A DNA stretch of 64,000 nt from a virus (taxonomy: Duplodnaviria > Caudoviricetes), in IMG/VR virus record IMGVR_UViG_3300048549_001527, one strand, 5' to 3'. The translations under genes were made by a program, and so were the position numbers. The first letter of the stretch is position 1; every line of letters begins with the position of its first letter. Below the pieces are notes generated by a model, which made no database searches, was not told the origin of the DNA, and was given only the letters and a program-made list of their open reading frames with translations. Below, in pieces: positions 2,400 through 46,169 of this stretch.

Positions 2400-2720
2400 C
2401 TATTCTCCCTTTGGAACGCAATTAGGGACCATCTTATCCCCTTTTTTCTTCATACCAACTTGTTTATAATCAGACCAACAAGCTTCTTGCTGTCCAATTT
2501 CTTTATCATCTTGCGATTTCATATAATCCCGAGCAGTATCAATATAATCTGTAGCCTTAGTGATTTTGCTTTGTACCCACTCTGGCATATTTTCATCGTC
2601 AGACAACATATCATGCAATTGTTGTGCTGCATCAATCATGGTTTTTAGTTGGCCTTTTGCCATACTACCTTCGTTATCATATTCGTCTTTTGATTCTAAA
2701 AAAGATTTAAAGTTTTTCAT
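2400..2720 (-). CDS. Putative internal head protein
   Basis: Starts MKNFKSFLE; contains MPEWVQSKITKA and C-terminal EACWSDYKQVGMKKKGDKMVPNCVP modules. Confidence 0.6.
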   Translation of the reverse strand: MKNFKSFLESKDEYDNEGSMAKGQLKTMIDAAQQLHDMLSDDENMPEWVQSKITKATDYIDTARDYMKSQDDKEIGQQEACWSDYKQVGMKKKGDKMVPNCVPKGE

Positions 2721-3010
2721 TTCATCAACTTCTTTATTGCTGCCAACGCTTTTTTACCGTCGGGATGTTTTGGATTAATACCTACAGGTTCGCCATTCAC
2801 AAGTTCTGATACATTAACAGATTTCCGCAAAGCTGCAATTGCTTTATGTAAAGGATCTTTTGAGTCATACTTAGTTTCAAACCCTGGTTTGCCGCGAACT
2901 TCAACCCAAGATTTTTCATTACTGTCTTTTATTTTTAAAACGTCTTGAGACTTACCCCTAATGAGTTTAATCTTAAGACCTTCTGATACATATTGTTTAA
3001 AACTATACAT
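2717..3010 (-). CDS. Putative internal head protein
   Basis: Likely start is ATG 3010, giving MYSFKQYVSE. Confidence 0.55.
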   Translation of the reverse strand: MYSFKQYVSEGLKIKLIRGKSQDVLKIKDSNEKSWVEVRGKPGFETKYDSKDPLHKAIAALRKSVNVSELVNGEPVGINPKHPDGKKALAAIKKLMK

Positions 3011-3563
3011 ACTCTTTAATCTTTTTCTCAATCGCTGTAATGATTTTATTATGTGTTTTACTTAAATATCTATCACTGCGTAGGCGTTTGATAGCGAGCG
3101 AAGTTTGTGCAGCATATTTCTTTTGAAAATCTACAGGCCGCGTATCAATGTCTTGTACGTTTGCTAATCTATCAGCAAGTTTAATAACCAATGACCAACT
3201 TGACATTTTAGCCATCTTATTGGCAATGTATTCACCTTTACCAATCGCATCAGACGCAGCCTTATCAGTTGTTAATTCCTGAACCATATCAGCTACAAGA
3301 GCACCAAACTGTTTAACTAAATCAGCATATGTGGTATCAGTATCTTCAATAGTATCATGCAAATATGCTGCTTGTACTAATGCTGAGAGGTTGTTTGATT
3401 TTTTAAACTTTTGTACGAACCTAGCAACTTCTTTTGGATGCTCAATGTATTTACCACCGCTTTTACGCGTCTGCCCTGAATGAGCTTGAGTAGCAACACG
3501 TAAAGCTTTAAGCGCGCTTTCATTTAGTGTATCTTCAGATATGAATTTTTTAAAAGTTTTCAT
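3003..3563 (-). CDS. HD-domain small alarmone hydrolase-like protein (SpoT-hydrolase/Mesh1 family) with capsid-targeting-like N-terminus
   Basis: AH.GQ.RKSG..YIEHP, AAYLHDTIEDT, V.ELT.DK and IKLADRLANV motifs; starts MKTFKKFISE. Confidence 0.85.
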   Translation of the reverse strand: MKTFKKFISEDTLNESALKALRVATQAHSGQTRKSGGKYIEHPKEVARFVQKFKKSNNLSALVQAAYLHDTIEDTDTTYADLVKQFGALVADMVQELTTDKAASDAIGKGEYIANKMAKMSSWSLVIKLADRLANVQDIDTRPVDFQKKYAAQTSLAIKRLRSDRYLSKTHNKIITAIEKKIKEYV

Positions 3564-19888: not shown

Positions 19889-20048
19889 ATTTACCTTCCC
19901 TTATATTTGAGGTGGCTTTTTTATTACCACAGTTAGAGCAAAAGAATACCGTTACGGTAAACTGGTGATTCTCAAAAGTAACAGTAGTTTGTCCTTTTGT
20001 TATATTAACAGTATCACAACAACCGTTAACTGTCAACTGTTTTTTCAT
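19878..20048 (-). CDS. Small Cys-containing hypothetical protein
   Basis: Likely start ATG 20048; CC and CSNC motifs. Confidence 0.45.
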   Translation of the reverse strand: MKKQLTVNGCCDTVNITKGQTTVTFENHQFTVTVFFCSNCGNKKATSNIREGKYEN

Positions 20049-20332
20049 TATACTGCAAAACTTTCTCCGCAACCACACGATGCAGTTGCGTTTGGATTTA
20101 CGACTTTTAAATAAGAACCACCTAATTCCTCTATATAATCTATAGTACATCCAAATATAAACATTTCTGCCATTGGATCAAGCCAAAGATTTTCTATAGT
20201 AGGTTCCTTATCGGTTGTTCCCCATTCATATTGAAATCCTGAGCAACCGCCACCTTTTACATTAAGAGATACATTTGGTTTTCCAGCTTTTGCTAAATAC
20301 TGTTTAGCTTTTTCTGTAACTGTAATGTTCAT
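20048..20332 (-). CDS. iscA: HesB/IscA-family Fe-S cluster assembly protein
   Basis: GGGCSGFQY and NPNATASCGCGESF motifs. Confidence 0.9.
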   Translation of the reverse strand: MNITVTEKAKQYLAKAGKPNVSLNVKGGGCSGFQYEWGTTDKEPTIENLWLDPMAEMFIFGCTIDYIEELGGSYLKVVNPNATASCGCGESFAV

Positions 20333-21138: not shown

Positions 21139-21819
21139 TTAGATTTCCTCAAATAAAACGTTATTTACATATTCATCTTTATCTTCTTCTGATATACCCA
21201 TTGCTAAAATGGATCTGTGAAGATGCGGATTCATTTTTTGATTTTCGCAATACTTATTTAATAGTGGCTTTGTATCACGACGAGCCACAAATTGATTTGT
21301 TTCCATACCCATTAAATAATATTCTACTAAATCTGACGTTACTTGAATAAATTGGTTAAGCTCTTTATCAGTATTAATATTCCCAACTGCTAGCATATCA
21401 GTTGAAAAGATTTCTTTTGCCCACGGCGGTAATTCACGTGGTTTATTCCATTCTAAGTTTGCAACCCTTTTTTCCATATAATCATGGTATGGATGCGGAA
21501 ATCCATATAATGGAGAAAAATCCATAAAAGAACCAGTAATTTTTTTAGGGCCGGCAACAATATCAAATCCTAGTATAGGTAATTCAATTCCAATTTTAGG
21601 GAATACGTTAACGTGCATTAGCCATAAACCTTTACCATCTTCTGGAACAATAGTTTTTAAATGAGCTTTAGAAATACTATCTGAAGACCAAAACCGATCT
21701 GTCCAGTCTTTAAACTGCAAGTCTTTCATAGCAGCGTTTTCGTATTCAGTAAAGTACTCATCAAAGCTAGACGCAATATAATCTGCGTAGCCGTTAAGCC
21801 TGTCCCATAATGGATACAT
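21139..21819 (-). CDS. pcyX: Ferredoxin-dependent bilin reductase, PcyX/PcyA-like
   Basis: LMHVNVFP, PILGFDIVAGPKKITGSFMDFSP, LPPWAKEIFS, YCENQKMNPH; near hemO. Confidence 0.8.
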   Translation of the reverse strand: MYPLWDRLNGYADYIASSFDEYFTEYENAAMKDLQFKDWTDRFWSSDSISKAHLKTIVPEDGKGLWLMHVNVFPKIGIELPILGFDIVAGPKKITGSFMDFSPLYGFPHPYHDYMEKRVANLEWNKPRELPPWAKEIFSTDMLAVGNINTDKELNQFIQVTSDLVEYYLMGMETNQFVARRDTKPLLNKYCENQKMNPHLHRSILAMGISEEDKDEYVNNVLFEEI

Positions 21820-21972: not shown

Positions 21973-22152
21973 TTAACTTCTTTTTCTGGCCCGACGAGCT
22001 TTTGCGAATTTATTTGCTAATCTCGTCTCGCGGGTCTCTTTTGCGCTTCGTCGCCGGCGCCTTGCAGCGTCTGACCTTGACATTCGGTTTACTCTACTCA
22101 TATCCTTTTGAAACTCAGGTTCTTCGGTTGCGTAAGTAATTTGCTCTTGCAT
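21973..22152 (-). CDS. 59-aa protein with Arg-rich C-terminus (not in ORF track)
   Basis: SD aggagg, consensus promoter upstream; ...SDAARRRRRSAKETRETRLANKFAKARRARKRS. Confidence 0.6.
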   Translation of the reverse strand: MQEQITYATEEPEFQKDMSRVNRMSRSDAARRRRRSAKETRETRLANKFAKARRARKRS

Positions 22153-22191
22153 TGCAAGTCTCCTCCTGTTTTTTATATAGCGTATGTTTAT

Positions 22192-22220
22192 ATTATAACT
22201 TGATAATATAGGAATGTCAA
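22192..22220 (-). promoter_or_regulatory. Consensus sigma70 promoter
   Basis: TTGACA-17-TATAAT. Confidence 0.8.
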
Positions 22221-22223
22221 CAA

Positions 22224-22766
22224 TTATGTAGACAATTCGTCAAAAAGTTTTGATGCAAATTCAAAACATTTTTTGGCCTCTGTGGCCATATCATCATTTA
22301 AGAGTTTTCTAAACTCCTCAATGAGAACTTTTGTATCACCTTCAAACTCGTACATTGTTCCAGAGCCAGGTGCTTTTCTTTTAATAATTTGACCGCCATG
22401 CAATTCGCCAAAGTGCCTTGTATACATATGGGCAAGCAAGCCTTGGTTATCGTCAGCTTCTGCTAAACTACCAATATGAGCTTGATATTCTTTAACTGAA
22501 ACAGGCAACGCAGACGGCATACCAAAGCCGTGTTCTTTTTCTAATTCTTGGATGTCAGCCATAATACGGTCAGCTCTATAAATTGCAGACAAATTCGGAG
22601 GAATGATAACTGCGTTTTCAAGAGGGGTATAATTATGCCATTGGCACCAAAGAAATATGTAATACTCGTGTGAGGTAAGTTCGCCGCGTAATAGTTTTCT
22701 AGCAAAAGCACGACGTTCTGCTGACTGATGGTGATCCCATGTCAACTGTTTCAAACGATTGGTCAT
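22224..22766 (-). CDS. hemO: Heme oxygenase
   Basis: LKQLTWDHHQSAE (proximal His) and AHMYTRHFGELHGGQII (distal helix). Confidence 0.9.
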   Translation of the reverse strand: MTNRLKQLTWDHHQSAERRAFARKLLRGELTSHEYYIFLWCQWHNYTPLENAVIIPPNLSAIYRADRIMADIQELEKEHGFGMPSALPVSVKEYQAHIGSLAEADDNQGLLAHMYTRHFGELHGGQIIKRKAPGSGTMYEFEGDTKVLIEEFRKLLNDDMATEAKKCFEFASKLFDELST

Positions 22767-22802
22767 TATAAAACCTTTTTTGTATAGGGTGCGTATCAGA
22801 TC

Positions 22803-22810
22803 TATTTATA
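22803..22810 (-). promoter_or_regulatory. T4-type late promoter upstream of hemO
   Basis: Exact TATAAATA. Confidence 0.65.
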
Positions 22811-22825
22811 CATTCTTTCAATGAC

Positions 22826-22849
22826 CAAAGGGGCAGCTTACGCCGCCCC
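22826..22849 (-). terminator. Terminator after the porin gene
   Basis: ggggcggc-gtaa-gctgcccc then ttt. Confidence 0.55.
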
Positions 22850-22877
22850 TCTACCAAGTTTTTTCTATAGGTATTCT

Positions 22878-23672
22878 TTAGAAGTTAAAGCTTACGCCTG
22901 CAGTTGGTGTAAACTCTTCAGCGTCAAAGTTGTATGAACTACCGAGTGTGATTTCAGCACCGCCGCCAACTTGATACTCATATTCGGCGCCAACGTTTTG
23001 TAGCGTTTCATCTGAGTCACCGTTAAGGTAAGCTGTAAGGCCCATTGCCTCAGCAGTTACTTCAAAGCCAATATCTTCTGCATCCATGTCGTATGTTACA
23101 GCGCCACCGAGTTCGGCAACTCCTGCATCTACGCCATCAACACCAGCAGCAATGACTGTGTTTTCAGTGTCTAAATTGTAATCAGCACCAGCTGTTACTT
23201 GAAGACGACTCATATCAATTGTGTATGCGCCTTGGATGTTACTAATGTCTGTAATGTCAGAGCTAAAGTCTGTGAAGCCAAGAGCTACTGCAGCTCCGCC
23301 TGCTTGTACACCCAAAGCTGTTCCCATTGCTGGTGCTGCAAGCGTTTGCTCGCCTTCTGCTCCTGGCAATACACCTTGGTCGTTGCCGAAGGACAGACCA
23401 AGACCTGCTACCGACATTCCAACGCCATATGTGTCAAGTTTAACATTATCATTTGCGTCTAAAACAAAATCCAAGTCAACTTGTGCTAATCCAGCTGCAT
23501 CAATTCCGAGATCCAAACCAGTAGTACCACCCCAATCGCCAGCGGCAGTTTCAGCAACGTTAATACTAAACTCTCCTGAAATCATGGCTCCTGCTTGAGC
23601 CGTCGTGTCTTCAGCAAATGCACCGCTAGCGAGTACTGTTGTGATTGCTGATGTGATGAATAAATTGCGCAT
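22878..23672 (-). CDS. Alphaproteobacterial-type outer-membrane porin
   Basis: Signal peptide (ASGAFA/E), alternating amphipathic beta-strands, C-terminal Phe (GVSFNF). Confidence 0.75.
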   Translation of the reverse strand: MRNLFITSAITTVLASGAFAEDTTAQAGAMISGEFSINVAETAAGDWGGTTGLDLGIDAAGLAQVDLDFVLDANDNVKLDTYGVGMSVAGLGLSFGNDQGVLPGAEGEQTLAAPAMGTALGVQAGGAAVALGFTDFSSDITDISNIQGAYTIDMSRLQVTAGADYNLDTENTVIAAGVDGVDAGVAELGGAVTYDMDAEDIGFEVTAEAMGLTAYLNGDSDETLQNVGAEYEYQVGGGAEITLGSSYNFDAEEFTPTAGVSFNF

Positions 23673-23704
23673 TATTATTCTTTCCTTTTAAAAATAGTTG
23701 TGTT

Positions 23705-24035
23705 AAGTTACCACTTTTCTGTTGCTAAGCAAGTGGCCAGCTCCCTGTGTTATGCCGCTAGGGCGTAACCAGATGGTGCAAAATTATCGTTTGCATTTGT
23801 AGTTTTTGGCTTAATAACGTAGGCCAACACGGTAATCTACTCTCATCTCTCTACGTCAGTCGATCCTATTTCGACCCCATCAAAGATACATTATAGAGAA
23901 AAGGAAACTTTTTTCAGCAATTCTTTTTCAGTTTACGTTCTCTCCAACGCTTAACCCATAATGTATCTATGGTGGAGTCGCTGGGTACCGCCCCCAGGTC
24001 CTGTCCGCATGTTGAATTGTATCAACGATTACTAG
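23705..24035 (-). ncRNA. ssrA: Permuted (two-piece) tmRNA
   Basis: Acceptor piece ends ...gacctgggggcggtacccagcgactccacca (CCA end at 23970). Intervening segment 23879-23969. Coding piece starts ggggtcgaa at 23878. Tag ORF 23794-23750 encodes ANDNFAPSGYALAA*. TTGACA upstream at 24068-24063. Outer ends are approximate. Confidence 0.9.
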
Positions 24036-24105
24036 ATATATATAAACTATATAAGGCCAAATGTCAACCACTCAGCCTTATATTTTATTAATTGTTACTT
24101 AAATG

Positions 24106-25071
24106 TCACACCGGGTTGATAACATAATGAATTAGTAACACTAACGCAACCGAGGCGCCAAGACCGACCATCATTTTACCAAAGTCCTTTGCGACCAACG
24201 GAAATACTGATTTGGTTTTCTTTTTACCAAAGTATGTAGCCATTGCCAATTCACGACCTGCTAGAAGCCCAACAAAGACCCAAGTTGTACTCATTGGAAT
24301 ATCGTTTAGTTCTTTAAAGAAATACAGACATAGCCAATAAAATAAGTCAATCAATGTCGCCGATCGTACGTATCGAGTGTTATGCTTTTCCAAAACAATC
24401 TTTTGGATCTTACCACCTTTTTCTCTAAACATAAAAAACAGGCCGGCAACAAACACAATACTAATAAACACCATTAGGTCTACTGGAATTTGTCGTGGTA
24501 GGAATACCGCAATGTTAGCAATATCGTGAGATAACCAAGTAAACCATAATCCACCTGTTGCTACCCATTGGGCAATACGCCAAAACTTTTTATTACCTTC
24601 AGATACTGGTTGAGTTTCGTCGTACCATTTACCAAAATACTTATGGATAGCAAACCACACAACATAAGCAAATGCTGCGGCAACACCATAACCCATAATT
24701 GATTTCATTAGCATCTTCTCTAACACAAAGGTTGAAGCAAATACTGATAAGACCAAAAACGATGTTGAAACGGGTACACCCATTCGTGTTAGTAAAACAA
24801 GAATAGCTGGGGCTGCGGCATGATACCATTGTACATCTTGGAATGGGATTTTATTCAAACGGCCATAGGATATATCGCCGCCATTCATATACCAACCATA
24901 CCATAGTGTATACAACAAAACCGCAGATGCTGCGGCCCATAATACTTTAAAGTTAAATCGCTCATTGTTTGATGCCATCCAAGTACCGAGCGTTTGTACT
25001 GAATCGTTTGCTATAACTGCATACGCAGCAAGCAGGAAGCCGACAAGGCTCCACATAGTGAGTAATTCCAT
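24106..25071 (-). CDS. PiT/PHO4-like multi-pass membrane permease, putative phosphate transporter
   Basis: About 10 TM segments; IANDSVQT and SHDIANIA resemble the two PiT GxND signature repeats; MGVPVSTS; Pho box upstream. Confidence 0.6.
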   Translation of the reverse strand: MELLTMWSLVGFLLAAYAVIANDSVQTLGTWMASNNERFNFKVLWAAASAVLLYTLWYGWYMNGGDISYGRLNKIPFQDVQWYHAAAPAILVLLTRMGVPVSTSFLVLSVFASTFVLEKMLMKSIMGYGVAAAFAYVVWFAIHKYFGKWYDETQPVSEGNKKFWRIAQWVATGGLWFTWLSHDIANIAVFLPRQIPVDLMVFISIVFVAGLFFMFREKGGKIQKIVLEKHNTRYVRSATLIDLFYWLCLYFFKELNDIPMSTTWVFVGLLAGRELAMATYFGKKKTKSVFPLVAKDFGKMMVGLGASVALVLLIHYVINPV

Positions 25072-25167
25072 TTAGTTCTCCTTTTTGCTTGACGGCTTTA
25101 CCCCGTCGCTCGCATTAAAAAAGACAAGGTATTTACCACCTTGCCTTAAAATATTTATTATAGAAAT

Positions 25168-25196
25168 ATGAAAGTTTTGTAACAGTACTGTAAAAC
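25168..25196 (-). promoter_or_regulatory. Pho box (PhoB-type 11-bp direct repeats)
   Basis: GTTTTAC-AGTA-CTGTTAC-AAAA-CTTTCAT followed by atttcTATAAT. Confidence 0.6.
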
Positions 25197-25200
25197 TTAG

Positions 25201-25225
25201 AAAAAAAGAGGGACCTAAGTCCCTC
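25201..25225 (-). terminator. Intrinsic terminator
   Basis: gagggac-ttag-gtccctc followed by 7 T. Confidence 0.8.
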
Positions 25226-25323
25226 CTAAAACCCAAAGGTTTTGTCTCCTTTGTGACACCCATTGTTTATCCGAGTCTAACTCAGCGATAGTTAGGCAGC
25301 GTAATCGCTTTGGGATTTGCCTA

Positions 25324-25704
25324 TTAGGCTGCAAGACGCCAGTCATGCGAAAAAGCAACAAAGCCGATTGGAGCAACTACAATACACTGACCTTCTTCGT
25401 CAACGAGTACATCGCTAACTGAAATTGAGTGCATACGTTCTAAGCGCTCAATGTTTTCTTCAGGACCGATGTTACCAATTTGAAATACTTCATTTGCTGA
25501 AGCAGCTTCAATATTAGCAACATGAGTGTAGTAGTTGTTTACTACGAAAGCATCGTATGCCAATCCACCGATCTTATGTCCTGCGAAATCCATATCCATA
25601 TCAATCTTTGCTTTTTTGGCAGGAACTGACTCAAAGCTTTGTGTTTCGTTGATTCTGTCAATTTGAGCATCTGTAAGACGGATTTGATAAATTGCGTATT
25701 TCAT
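25324..25704 (-). CDS. Early hypothetical protein ending in -RLAA
   Basis: 126 aa; own promoter and SD; HSISVSDV motif. Confidence 0.6.
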   Translation of the reverse strand: MKYAIYQIRLTDAQIDRINETQSFESVPAKKAKIDMDMDFAGHKIGGLAYDAFVVNNYYTHVANIEAASANEVFQIGNIGPEENIERLERMHSISVSDVLVDEEGQCIVVAPIGFVAFSHDWRLAA

Positions 25705-25736
25705 AAGATGATTCCTTTTGTTTACCTTATAGAATC

Positions 25737-25765
25737 AATCTATACTATTCTGGACTAAATGTCAA
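25737..25765 (-). promoter_or_regulatory. sigma70-type early promoter
   Basis: TTGACA-17-TAGATT, with TGATTCT immediately downstream. Confidence 0.7.
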
Positions 25766-25774
25766 TAGTTAATT

Positions 25775-26254
25775 TCATAATGCTGTAGGAAATGGGGGAT
25801 TACCTATTTCCGGCAGTTCATCAAATACTGTGTTTGCCCAAAGAACTCCAGTTCTCATTCTAGCATCAGTCCCATAAGGAAGCACTTGCCCAGTGCAGTT
25901 TATGGTTACTGTTTCATCATCATCGTTAAATGTAATACCGCCGTGCAAATTGGCAGGTACAATAATATTAGGAGAAGCTGTATTCAAATCAACCATCCTA
26001 AAAGATAGGTCATCTTCAGTGTACGTTAAACCTTCAGACTGTAACATGCGATTAATACACACAAGTAAAGTAGGTACTACATAAGATTGAAACTCGTATA
26101 TTGGATATCCGTTTTCATCGGTTGTCTCTGTATTGATTGCTGCAAAAAGAGAGCAGTGCTGTGCCCACTCTTGCACTTGATCATCAGTTACTCCATCAAT
26201 TTTAACTGGATATTGGATGTACCAAAGCTTGGTCTGAGTTGGAATATTGCTCAT
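25775..26254 (-). CDS. Hypothetical protein, late
   Basis: 159 aa, downstream of TATAAATA at 26284-26291. Confidence 0.55.
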   Translation of the reverse strand: MSNIPTQTKLWYIQYPVKIDGVTDDQVQEWAQHCSLFAAINTETTDENGYPIYEFQSYVVPTLLVCINRMLQSEGLTYTEDDLSFRMVDLNTASPNIIVPANLHGGITFNDDDETVTINCTGQVLPYGTDARMRTGVLWANTVFDELPEIGNPPFPTAL

Positions 26255-45357: not shown

Positions 45358-46169
45358 TGGAGCCAAAACTAAAAGGATTTCCAAAGTGCTACGTTGTTAA
45401 CCTTGAAGAAAGTGTTGAACGTAGAGACTATATGAATTCCGAGTTTAATAGACTCGGTTTAGATGGAACCGTCCTACAATACAAAAGACTTGAAGACAGC
45501 GATTTAAAGATTGCTGGCGACCGTGACACCTTGGACATACTACCATTAGGTGCTACTACTTCTCATCTCCTGACCATTAAGTGGTGGTATGAAAATACTG
45601 ATGATGAACAAGCCGCATTCTTTGAAGACGACTGTGACTTTAGCACTATTCAACATTGGAACTTTGTTTATGAGGATTATGTTAAGGAGTTTGGCGTATT
45701 GTGGGATGGTCTCCAACTTTGCTGCATGCACGAAGGCTGGGCTGTTATGTATCCACGCCACCGCAACGGCCACGATCATGGACTTCAATGCTATGTAATT
45801 AAGCGCCATTATGCTAAAAAAATTATAGACTATTATTTTGTAAATGATAACACAATACATTTTAAAATGCCGTATGTATTAAAGAGTGAAGATAGTAAAA
45901 AGTATAAACCTACTATAGAAAATGTTGTATATGGATTAGGCACTTTCTATATTCACCCGTTATTTAATCATAACGTACCAAAATTTCCATCAACAGTTCA
46001 CGATCCAAATTCACAACATTTAAAAGATGTTGCTAATCACGCATATGGATATGTTAAACAGTGGTGGGAAACCAAAGGAGGAACTGGTAACCTTAATGAA
46101 TTATTTACTTATGAGTGGTGTTGTCCACCACCTCAAACATTTTCCCAAGTCATGCATATTGATAGGTAG
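45357..46169 (+). CDS. Glycosyltransferase family 25-like protein
   Basis: YVVNLEESVERR, SHLLTIKWW and FFEDD motifs. Confidence 0.7.
   Translation: MEPKLKGFPKCYVVNLEESVERRDYMNSEFNRLGLDGTVLQYKRLEDSDLKIAGDRDTLDILPLGATTSHLLTIKWWYENTDDEQAAFFEDDCDFSTIQHWNFVYEDYVKEFGVLWDGLQLCCMHEGWAVMYPRHRNGHDHGLQCYVIKRHYAKKIIDYYFVNDNTIHFKMPYVLKSEDSKKYKPTIENVVYGLGTFYIHPLFNHNVPKFPSTVHDPNSQHLKDVANHAYGYVKQWWETKGGTGNLNELFTYEWCCPPPQTFSQVMHIDR

Follow-up and report, generated by a model that had tools for sequence, protein, structure and literature searches.

A circularly permuted, alphaproteobacterial-type tmRNA gene and its conserved locus in marine T4-like phages

Introduction

Does a phage that carries a gene for transfer-messenger RNA (tmRNA; ssrA) carry a working one, and what would it gain from it? 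The question is raised by a locus on the minus strand of IMG/VR virus record IMGVR_UViG_3300048549_001527, of which a stretch of 64,000 nucleotides (nt), referred to below as the window, was analysed. An earlier note, made from the letters of the window, had read the locus as a phage-borne, circularly permuted tmRNA of the alphaproteobacterial (alpha) type and had quoted its tag. Rfam matches and dissection of the gene bear this out, and the elements that had been listed (promoter, acceptor piece with its CCA, 91-nt segment, closing arms and tag) are all present; that they lie on the minus strand had gone unstated. The locus is almost certainly a complete alpha-type circularly permuted tmRNA gene. 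Judged by its conservation, it is also very likely a functional ssrA of a clade of marine T4-like myoviruses, in which it has a fixed place upstream of gp33-gp59-gp32.

The class itself is already known, and the novelty implied by the earlier note was too high. A two-piece ssrA has been described in the Methylophilales phage Melnitz (Buchholz et al. 2022; PMC9004378), permuted tmRNAs are on record in 17 of 47 Melnitz-related contigs, and 53 two-piece tmRNAs, nearly all of them aquatic, were counted among 18,146 phage genomes (2021 survey; PMC9004378). A 2025 tmRNA database holds 79 unique bacteriophage tmRNAs (PMC11915505). What is added here is a fixed locus with a slot for cargo genes, a covarying spacer stem, peptide-level selection on a tag that is possibly private to phages, and a blind spot of the program ARAGORN.

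The gene and its parts

Two Rfam models match the gene over their full lengths (Infernal): the alpha model RF01849 (alpha_tmRNA; 24071-23706, minus strand; 112.4 bits against a gathering score of 50, E 7.5e-30), use of which had been proposed as a check, and RF04321 (tmRNA_permuted; 24032-23750, minus strand; 120.2 bits, gathering score 47). Between 22000 and 26000 the other models of the tmRNA clan score lower than the alpha model and are displaced by it. A permissive Rfam scan of the same interval (E up to 1) finds the tmRNA alone, with no other family beside the gene and no glutamine riboswitch.

The order of the parts is permuted, in that the T arm, the 3' acceptor strand and CCA come first, followed by a spacer and then by the 5' acceptor strand and the coding part:

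23970-24032, minus strand: acceptor piece, 63 nt; from Rfam alignments and dissection, its 5' end placed by the model start and the promoter position
23879-23969, minus strand: intervening spacer, 91 nt exactly; from length and fold, predicted to be excised in maturation
23706-23878, minus strand: coding piece, 173 nt; from Rfam and dissection, its 3' end (about 23706) being the end of the alpha model
23750-23794, minus strand: tag reading frame; resume codon GCA, 14 codons, stop TAA, peptide ANDNFAPSGYALAA

The succession of acceptor piece, spacer and coding piece is that of the Caulobacter crescentus type, as far as that type is described through the citation of Keiler, Shapiro and Williams (2000) in PMC9004378; unlike the latter, the window gene is virus-borne.

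The acceptor piece comprises the 3' strands of helix 2, the T arm (CUGGG / GGCGGUA / CCCAG), the 3' acceptor strand CGACUCC and an encoded ACCA; its 3' end reads CTCCACCA (in a longer stretch, CUCCACCA). The coding piece starts GGGGUCGAAAUAGGAUCGAC, with GGGG at 23878, and brings the 5' acceptor strand GGGGUCG with G3, the conserved AAAUAGGAUCGAC and the 5' strands of helix 2. Between them the two pieces form an acceptor stem of 7 pairs (GGGGUCG with CGACUCC) in which the alanine identity pair G3:U70 is present. Further on, the coding piece holds a candidate pseudoknot 1, the tag frame, a short helix 5 and a 3' pseudoknot-like hairpin (CCACUU at 23736-23731 with AAGUGG at 23716-23711). Pseudoknot 1 would be of the H-type (CGUG/UACG and UUGGC/GCCAA, at about 23831-23806, between helix 2 and the resume codon) and is not contained in the Rfam models.

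In the Rfam alignment practically every strongly conserved position of the alpha consensus is matched by the tRNA-like domain. With the alphaproteobacterial type as represented by RF01849 the window gene shares this domain, G3:U70, the encoded CCA, and a tag that starts ANDN... and ends ...ALAA. It departs from the model in having shorter outer segments of helix 2, in lacking about 45 model positions past the stop codon, and in a tag, ANDNFAPSGYALAA, that is two codons longer than the Rfam alpha consensus tag ANDNYAPVALAA.

The spacer folds into a hairpin (minimum free energy, MFE, -23.8 kcal/mol; z -3.3) whose arms agatacattat/ataatgtatct occupy 23968-23958 and 23894-23884 and extend to a closing stem of 14 base pairs. 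A single nucleotide separates CCA from the hairpin, and a conserved 5-nt leader, UUGAU, separates the hairpin from G1. The spacer holds no small gene: there are stops in all three frames, and its sole ATG opens a frame of two codons.

Conservation of structure and tag

Relatives were collected by searching IMG/VR with the 5' core of the coding piece, which is conserved; this yields more than 120 contigs among the matches listed, and a second scan, for the tag-coding stretch, yields two further contigs. (All counts given here over 123 loci, 109 genes, 83 tags, 75 spacers, and 39 and 24 loci are counts among the matches listed.) Rfam finds a full alpha-type tmRNA in 16 of the 16 closest relatives among these.

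Paired positions in the relatives change in step. Among 14 distinct sequences of the window's subfamily two pairs of the T stem alternate between CG and UA, helix 2a alternates between UA and AU, and helix 2b between UA and CG and between AU and GC. Across the 109 complete genes acceptor pair 5 occurs as G-C, U-A, C-G and A-U, while G3:U is fixed. Compensatory changes are also seen, by eye from the alignment, in the second stem of pseudoknot 1 (loci L016, L032 and L114) and, among relatives, in the 3' hairpin. With 12 sequences as input, an independent RNAalifold run also arrives at the T arm, the acceptor stem and the stem that closes the spacer, with 11 pairs that change on both sides; 9 of these are in the spacer stem (9 of 11 closing-stem pairs, in at least one sequence each).

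In 72 of 75 genes with spacers of 40-300 nt the hairpin closes 1-2 nt past CCA and 4-5 nt before G1; the UUGAU leader is nearly invariant among the aligned relatives. A covarying closing stem with fixed hairpin ends implies that the spacer is not junk. As far as can be read from sequence, the arrangement fits a precursor with the hairpin stacked on the acceptor stem and cleaved off at either side by tRNA-processing enzymes.

The tag is conserved as a peptide. Its last residue is Ala in all 83 distinct tags and its penultimate residue is Ala in 82 of them, with all four Ala codons in use, and the start A-N-(D)-N is kept through synonymous change, N2 and N4 alternating between AAC and AAT. One contig from an RNA library differs from the tag frame of the window by three synonymous changes and one change of Tyr to Phe.

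These comparisons show that the structure of the gene and the peptide of its tag are under purifying selection. Covariation of structure together with conservation at the peptide level implies selection for a translated tag and for a charged, folded tRNA-like domain, and this is good, if indirect, evidence of trans-translation activity. The gene can be thought of as a worked example of a phage gene selected both for structure and for tag peptide, which argues for trans-translation during infection and against a dead passenger.

Two related T4-like contigs carry a compact form of the gene (L121, 1835-2085; L122, 7238-7488), in which 171 nt span the permuted model, compared with 283 in the window. 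At least 33 nt of their tag-coding stretch are identical to that of the window.

Detection by ARAGORN

ARAGORN had been proposed as a second check. It does not find the window tmRNA gene at default or at mildly relaxed settings; at -ps80 it reports the correct tag, with misplaced boundaries of the tRNA-like domain and a spurious second call, and its output was not used as evidence. Among the 109 complete alpha-type viral tmRNA genes (loci L001-L120) 37 are missed at default settings, the window's included. Surveys that are based on ARAGORN must then undercount phage tmRNAs, and published counts are probably too low, which is a caution for such surveys generally. The survey of the Melnitz paper used the same program, by which the window gene is missed at default settings.

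Elsewhere in the window ARAGORN calls a tRNA-Asn (anticodon ATT, 87 nt, 45400-45486, minus strand) that has no Rfam tRNA match; probably this is a miscall, or else an unusual tRNA-like element.

The locus

Homologues of T4 gp43, gp32, UvsX, gp41, gp46/47, both topoisomerase II subunits, a UvsW-like helicase, UvsY, gp59 and gp33 are encoded in the window, which by these homologies is that of a T4-like myovirus. The tmRNA gene sits in phage DNA, not host DNA. By sequence the phage has no close relative among named phages: its DNA polymerase is at most 44% identical, and its gp32 at most about 55-59% identical, to proteins of cyanophages and of Pelagibacter phage HTVC008M.

Of the 123 viral loci that have this tmRNA core, about 85 also have T4-like genes in common with the window. 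A gp59 homologue lies downstream of the tmRNA on the same strand in 39 of the 39 loci that have gp59, and the same holds for gp32 in 24 of 24. The order in the window is tmRNA, gp33, gp59, gp32, all on one strand, with about 4 kilobases (kb) of extra genes between the tmRNA and gp33.

Together with related pelagimyophage-type phages, Melnitz (MZ577097, Kyanoviridae) provides the closest published parallel in position; like the window phage it is a marine T4-like myovirus with an alpha-type permuted tmRNA and an ssrA tag of 14 residues. Its order is tmRNA, gp33, gp59, thyX, gp32, and the window shares with it both the strand and the order relative to gp33, gp59 and gp32; by these comparisons the tmRNA gene of the window is the positional orthologue of the published Melnitz ssrA. 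The two tags (ANDNYVPVDYALAA in Melnitz, ANDNFAPSGYALAA in the window) belong to the same 14-residue series, to which the tags of many viral contigs also belong, and the two tmRNA pieces are about 62-66% identical. The spacers differ, that of Melnitz being 142 nt long, with one frame open over all 47 codons and containing an ATG, whereas the 91-nt spacer of the window has no open frame. Melnitz has a glutamine riboswitch behind its tmRNA, a feature that is common at the ssrA 3' end but not defining (PMC9004378), and the window has none (22000-26000, E up to 1). Conversely, Melnitz is without the 4 kb or so of extra genes (a porin-like open reading frame (ORF), heme oxygenase, bilin reductase, an Fe-S protein and others) that precede gp33 in the window. 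Presence of a tmRNA at this locus is probably an old feature of the phage clade.

Alpha-type permuted tmRNAs also occur in cultured roseobacter and Rhodobacter phages, whose hosts are Alphaproteobacteria: DSS3_MAL1 (ssrA annotated in GenBank), Phaeobacter phage MD18 and RcXuper, with spacers of 98-109 nt and the 14-residue tags ANTNAAPMEMAIAA and ANENFAPMEMRLAA. In those phages, which are of about 148-150 kb, the tmRNA lies among or near tRNA genes and not at the gp33-gp59-gp32 locus, and the tRNA-like parts alone align with the window. In blastn against named phages the gene has no match at E 1e-5; at E up to 1 its short tRNA-like parts alone match tmRNAs of roseophages and Rhodobacter phages, too weakly for the gene to be placed.

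The locus bears directly on the suggestion that the gene does not work and is chance host DNA, the remnant of an attachment site or an assembly chimera. That tmRNA genes are common integration sites, and that fragments of ssrA occur in prophages (PMC9004378), gives the suggestion a rationale. But both pieces are complete and lie between genes of a lytic-type T4-like phage, and the same locus recurs, with covariation, in dozens of independent viral contigs and in cultured Melnitz, which leaves a non-working gene with a negligible probability.

RNA libraries, points against a functional ssrA, and SmpB

Part of the stretch occurs in 20 public runs, all of which come from libraries of marine, estuarine or salt-marsh origin. 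Other tmRNAs account for the very deep pieces over 23704-23767, 23832-23895 and 23960-24023 (one of these tmRNAs has the joined form with a different, 19-nt spacer). Pieces of exact identity are present in RNA libraries of two studies: 23472-23726 and 23787-23937 in X3, and 23972-24027 and 24055-24256 in X5. The X3 piece at 23787-23937 bridges the boundary between spacer and coding piece, which precursor RNA or carried-over DNA would fit equally.

Several points weigh against a functional ssrA. When the single sequence is folded by MFE, or co-folded, the acceptor stem and the spacer hairpin form and the T arm does not; such an outcome is usual for tmRNA, and the structure consequently depends on the models and on covariation. 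In the window's subfamily one middle helix-2 segment of the Rfam model is unpaired. The four runs examined consist of assembled contigs, from which ends and abundance cannot be read. Finally, the benefit to the phage is one that we infer, and Buchholz et al. (PMC9004378) likewise speculate.

No member of the SmpB family is found among the 61 window ORFs of 105-300 amino acids (aa), in agreement with the earlier note, or in four related viral records; this counts in favour of the main reading, and host SmpB must serve, unless there is a copy in the part of the genome that lies outside the window. SmpB also figures in the proposal that the phage tmRNA is a decoy RNA: with no phage SmpB present, the phage RNA and the host tmRNA must vie for host SmpB. 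A decoy would not, on the other hand, need an intact tag frame under peptide selection, a canonical degron end or a canonical tRNA-like domain, and the proposal is barely credible.

An attachment-site remnant, host contamination and a decoy RNA were considered as candidates and rejected on the complete pieces, the conserved locus, the covariation and the intact, selected tag.

Promoter and 3' flank

A predicted promoter and a 264-aa ORF frame the gene:

24039-24067, minus strand: predicted sigma-70-type promoter; -35 TTGACA (24067-24062), 17 nt, -10 TATATA (24044-24039), called from conservation
22878-23672, minus strand: porin-like ORF, 264 aa; signal peptide, acidic Gly/Ala-rich body, C-terminal Phe, its own ribosome-binding site (RBS)

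Hexamers of this kind (TTGACA or TTTACA, about 17 nt, TATAAA or TAATAT) recur, equally far from the acceptor piece, in nearly all of the 16 relatives and also in Melnitz, where TTGACA, 17 nt and TATAxA directly precede ssrA. A scan for consensus promoters returns 3 sites where 2.7 are expected by chance, and does not flag the tmRNA promoter (position 6 of the second hexamer is A). The scan is thus at chance level, and the promoter call rests on conservation. Transcription is predicted to start at 24032, where helix 2 has its first base, or no more than a few bases away; with such a start the acceptor piece may need no trimming at its 5' end.

The 264-aa ORF begins 33 nt past the tmRNA, with no terminator-like site between the two, and for these reasons is probably co-transcribed with the tmRNA. 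In the nearest relatives, too, an RBS and an ATG lie within about 30 nt of the tmRNA end; the 3' flank of other relatives holds a terminator (L019, L120), a glutamine riboswitch (L026, L076, Melnitz) or a manA RNA (L123). The slot behind the tmRNA is filled with different genes in different phages.

This layout suggests a different use for the gene, as an expression module that provides a strong early promoter and a tRNA-like processing site to the gene behind it, ribosome rescue being secondary. The close, unterminated spacing of the next ORF in the window and the equally close start signals in the nearest relatives would suit such a module, as would a riboswitch or manA RNA directly behind the tmRNA elsewhere and the differing gene content of the slot. 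An expression module would not need a peptide-conserved tag with a fixed Ala-Ala end, pseudoknot 1 or G3:U70, however, and some relatives (L019, L120) have a terminator behind the tmRNA. As the primary function of the locus it is very improbable.

The glutamine riboswitches of L026 (1019-1072) and L076 (1903-1956) are directly 3' of the tmRNA. Both contigs are Melnitz-like, and L076 is 76.5% identical to the Melnitz ssrA region.

Proposed mechanism

The action of a functional ssrA in this clade can be sketched as follows. A sigma-70-type early promoter would set the start of the transcript at, or close to, the acceptor piece's first base, and the transcript would probably continue into the next gene. 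The precursor would fold with its 91-nt spacer hairpin stacked on the acceptor stem; host RNase P would then cleave ahead of G1 in the coding piece, while 3' processing by the host would trim the other side to the encoded CCA. The spacer would be released, and the two RNAs would stay joined by the acceptor stem and helix 2. Host alanyl-tRNA synthetase would charge the tmRNA by way of G3:U70. With host SmpB and EF-Tu, the charged tmRNA would enter stalled ribosomes, add ANDNFAPSGYALAA and release the ribosomes, and the ALAA end would direct the tagged fragments to host proteases of the ClpXP type.

The earlier note had raised the possibility that the phage redirects proteolysis through a different tag. 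This finds no support in the tag itself, whose start (ANDN) and end (ALAA) are canonical and are both under peptide-level selection; with a canonical ANDN start and a YALAA end the tag should feed the ordinary ClpXP route.

The likely benefit to the phage would be ribosome rescue and recycling of amino acids after phage shut-off of host transcription and the breakage of host mRNA and DNA. A comparable role has been proposed, as speculation, for phage ssrA: maintenance of the hijacked machinery, or amino-acid recycling (PMC9004378).

Alternatively, as the earlier note suggested, the extra rescue capacity might serve counter-defence, allowing the phage to survive defences that cut tRNA or mRNA or that attack host tmRNA (anticodon nucleases, mRNA-interferase toxins and CRISPR-associated RNases are examples, and with each of them ribosomes end up stalled on broken messages). 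The early-type promoter has a conserved position and would have the tmRNA made at the start of infection, which is at most indirectly in keeping with this, and retention of one locus across a large phage clade argues for a strong general benefit. Yet no defence or anti-defence gene is linked to the tmRNA in the window or in relatives, and the genes that vary behind the tmRNA have metabolic or envelope roles (porin-like ORF, heme oxygenase, bilin reductase, Fe-S protein). If translation in general is kept going after host shut-off, moreover, the same facts are explained without an extra assumption, and counter-defence is on balance unlikely.

Host class and origin of the tag

The earlier note had taken permuted tmRNA to be the alphaproteobacterial form and had held that this fixes the host class. 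The first part is incomplete: the alpha model is indeed the best of its clan here, but permuted forms are also found in a betaproteobacterial lineage and in cyanobacteria (PMC11915505, PMC9004378). The second part fails on Melnitz, which infects OM43, not an alphaproteobacterium, and yet has an alpha-type ssrA at the same locus. The type of tmRNA tracks the phage lineage, and by itself cannot fix the host class, a caution that applies to host prediction in general. An alphaproteobacterial host is nevertheless likely, on evidence of another kind: the ATP-synthase c subunit encoded in the window matches the c-ring of Paracoccus denitrificans with 59.9 bits, the next solved homologue scoring about 31.

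The tag frame is all but absent from the bacterial genomes searched. The pattern ANDNFAPxGYALAA has 0 matches in 185,579 bacterial species genomes, and the wider ANDNFAPxxxALAA followed by TAA has 1. (The bacterial pattern required a TAA stop, and 25 of the 83 viral tags end in TAG or TGA.) The sole match, L123, lies at 2536-3165 of NYWG01000240.1, a 6-kb contig of a Verrucomicrobiales metagenome-assembled genome (MAG), where an alpha-type permuted tmRNA is followed directly by a manA RNA motif and accompanied by homologues of three phage genes of the window. To judge from this content L123 is probably a fragment of a marine T4-like phage that was mis-binned into a bacterial MAG, and the tag frame ANDNFAPxxxALAA is plausibly private to phages.

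A broader reading, offered tentatively and as possible though rather doubtful, is that the alpha-type tmRNA of the marine T4-like clade is an old, vertically inherited and independently evolved phage gene and not a recent acquisition from a host. It draws on a 14-residue tag series, ANDNFAP-x-x-[YF]-ALAA, that would be private to phages and carried by no sequenced bacterial species, combined with a spacer hairpin selected in its own right for processing and with the fixed locus, and on a view of the 3' flank as an early-expression slot for swappable cargo (porin-like, pigment, iron and riboswitch-controlled genes). If it is true, trans-translation by these phages would be a system specific to the lineage and tuned within it, and more than a simple spare part. 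There is a testable lead here: the tag frame appears to be phage-private, and the site behind the tmRNA is a hot spot for auxiliary genes.

Neighbouring genes

Beyond the porin-like ORF, the block of about 4 kb behind the tmRNA contains the following:

22224-22766, minus strand: heme oxygenase, adjoining the bilin reductase
21139-21819, minus strand: ferredoxin-dependent bilin reductase, adjoining the heme oxygenase
20048-20332, minus strand: Fe-S cluster biosynthesis protein, IscA-like (PF01521), in the same cargo block; 77-82% identical to ORFs of L069 and L123

The 264-aa ORF matches no family of Pfam or PHROG. In the Atlas it neighbours clusters that are purely viral, together with a Porin_4 lead, and in sequence it is like an outer-membrane beta-barrel. 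Homologues lie downstream of the tmRNA on the same strand in L073, L082, L092 and L035, and L115 also has a homologue.

A two-gene cassette of hemO and a PcyX-type gene has been described from uncultured oceanic phages (PMC11480375). The adjoining heme oxygenase and bilin reductase of the window correspond to this cassette, and L115 has both genes beside its tmRNA locus.

On the other side of the tmRNA, the upstream ORF (24106-25071) encodes 321 aa and has no family match. A hairpin of 15 pairs (24049-24083, minus strand), situated 23-57 nt past the stop of this ORF, overlaps the -35 box of the tmRNA promoter and may end the transcript of the ORF. One RNA-library contig ends at 24055, within this hairpin.

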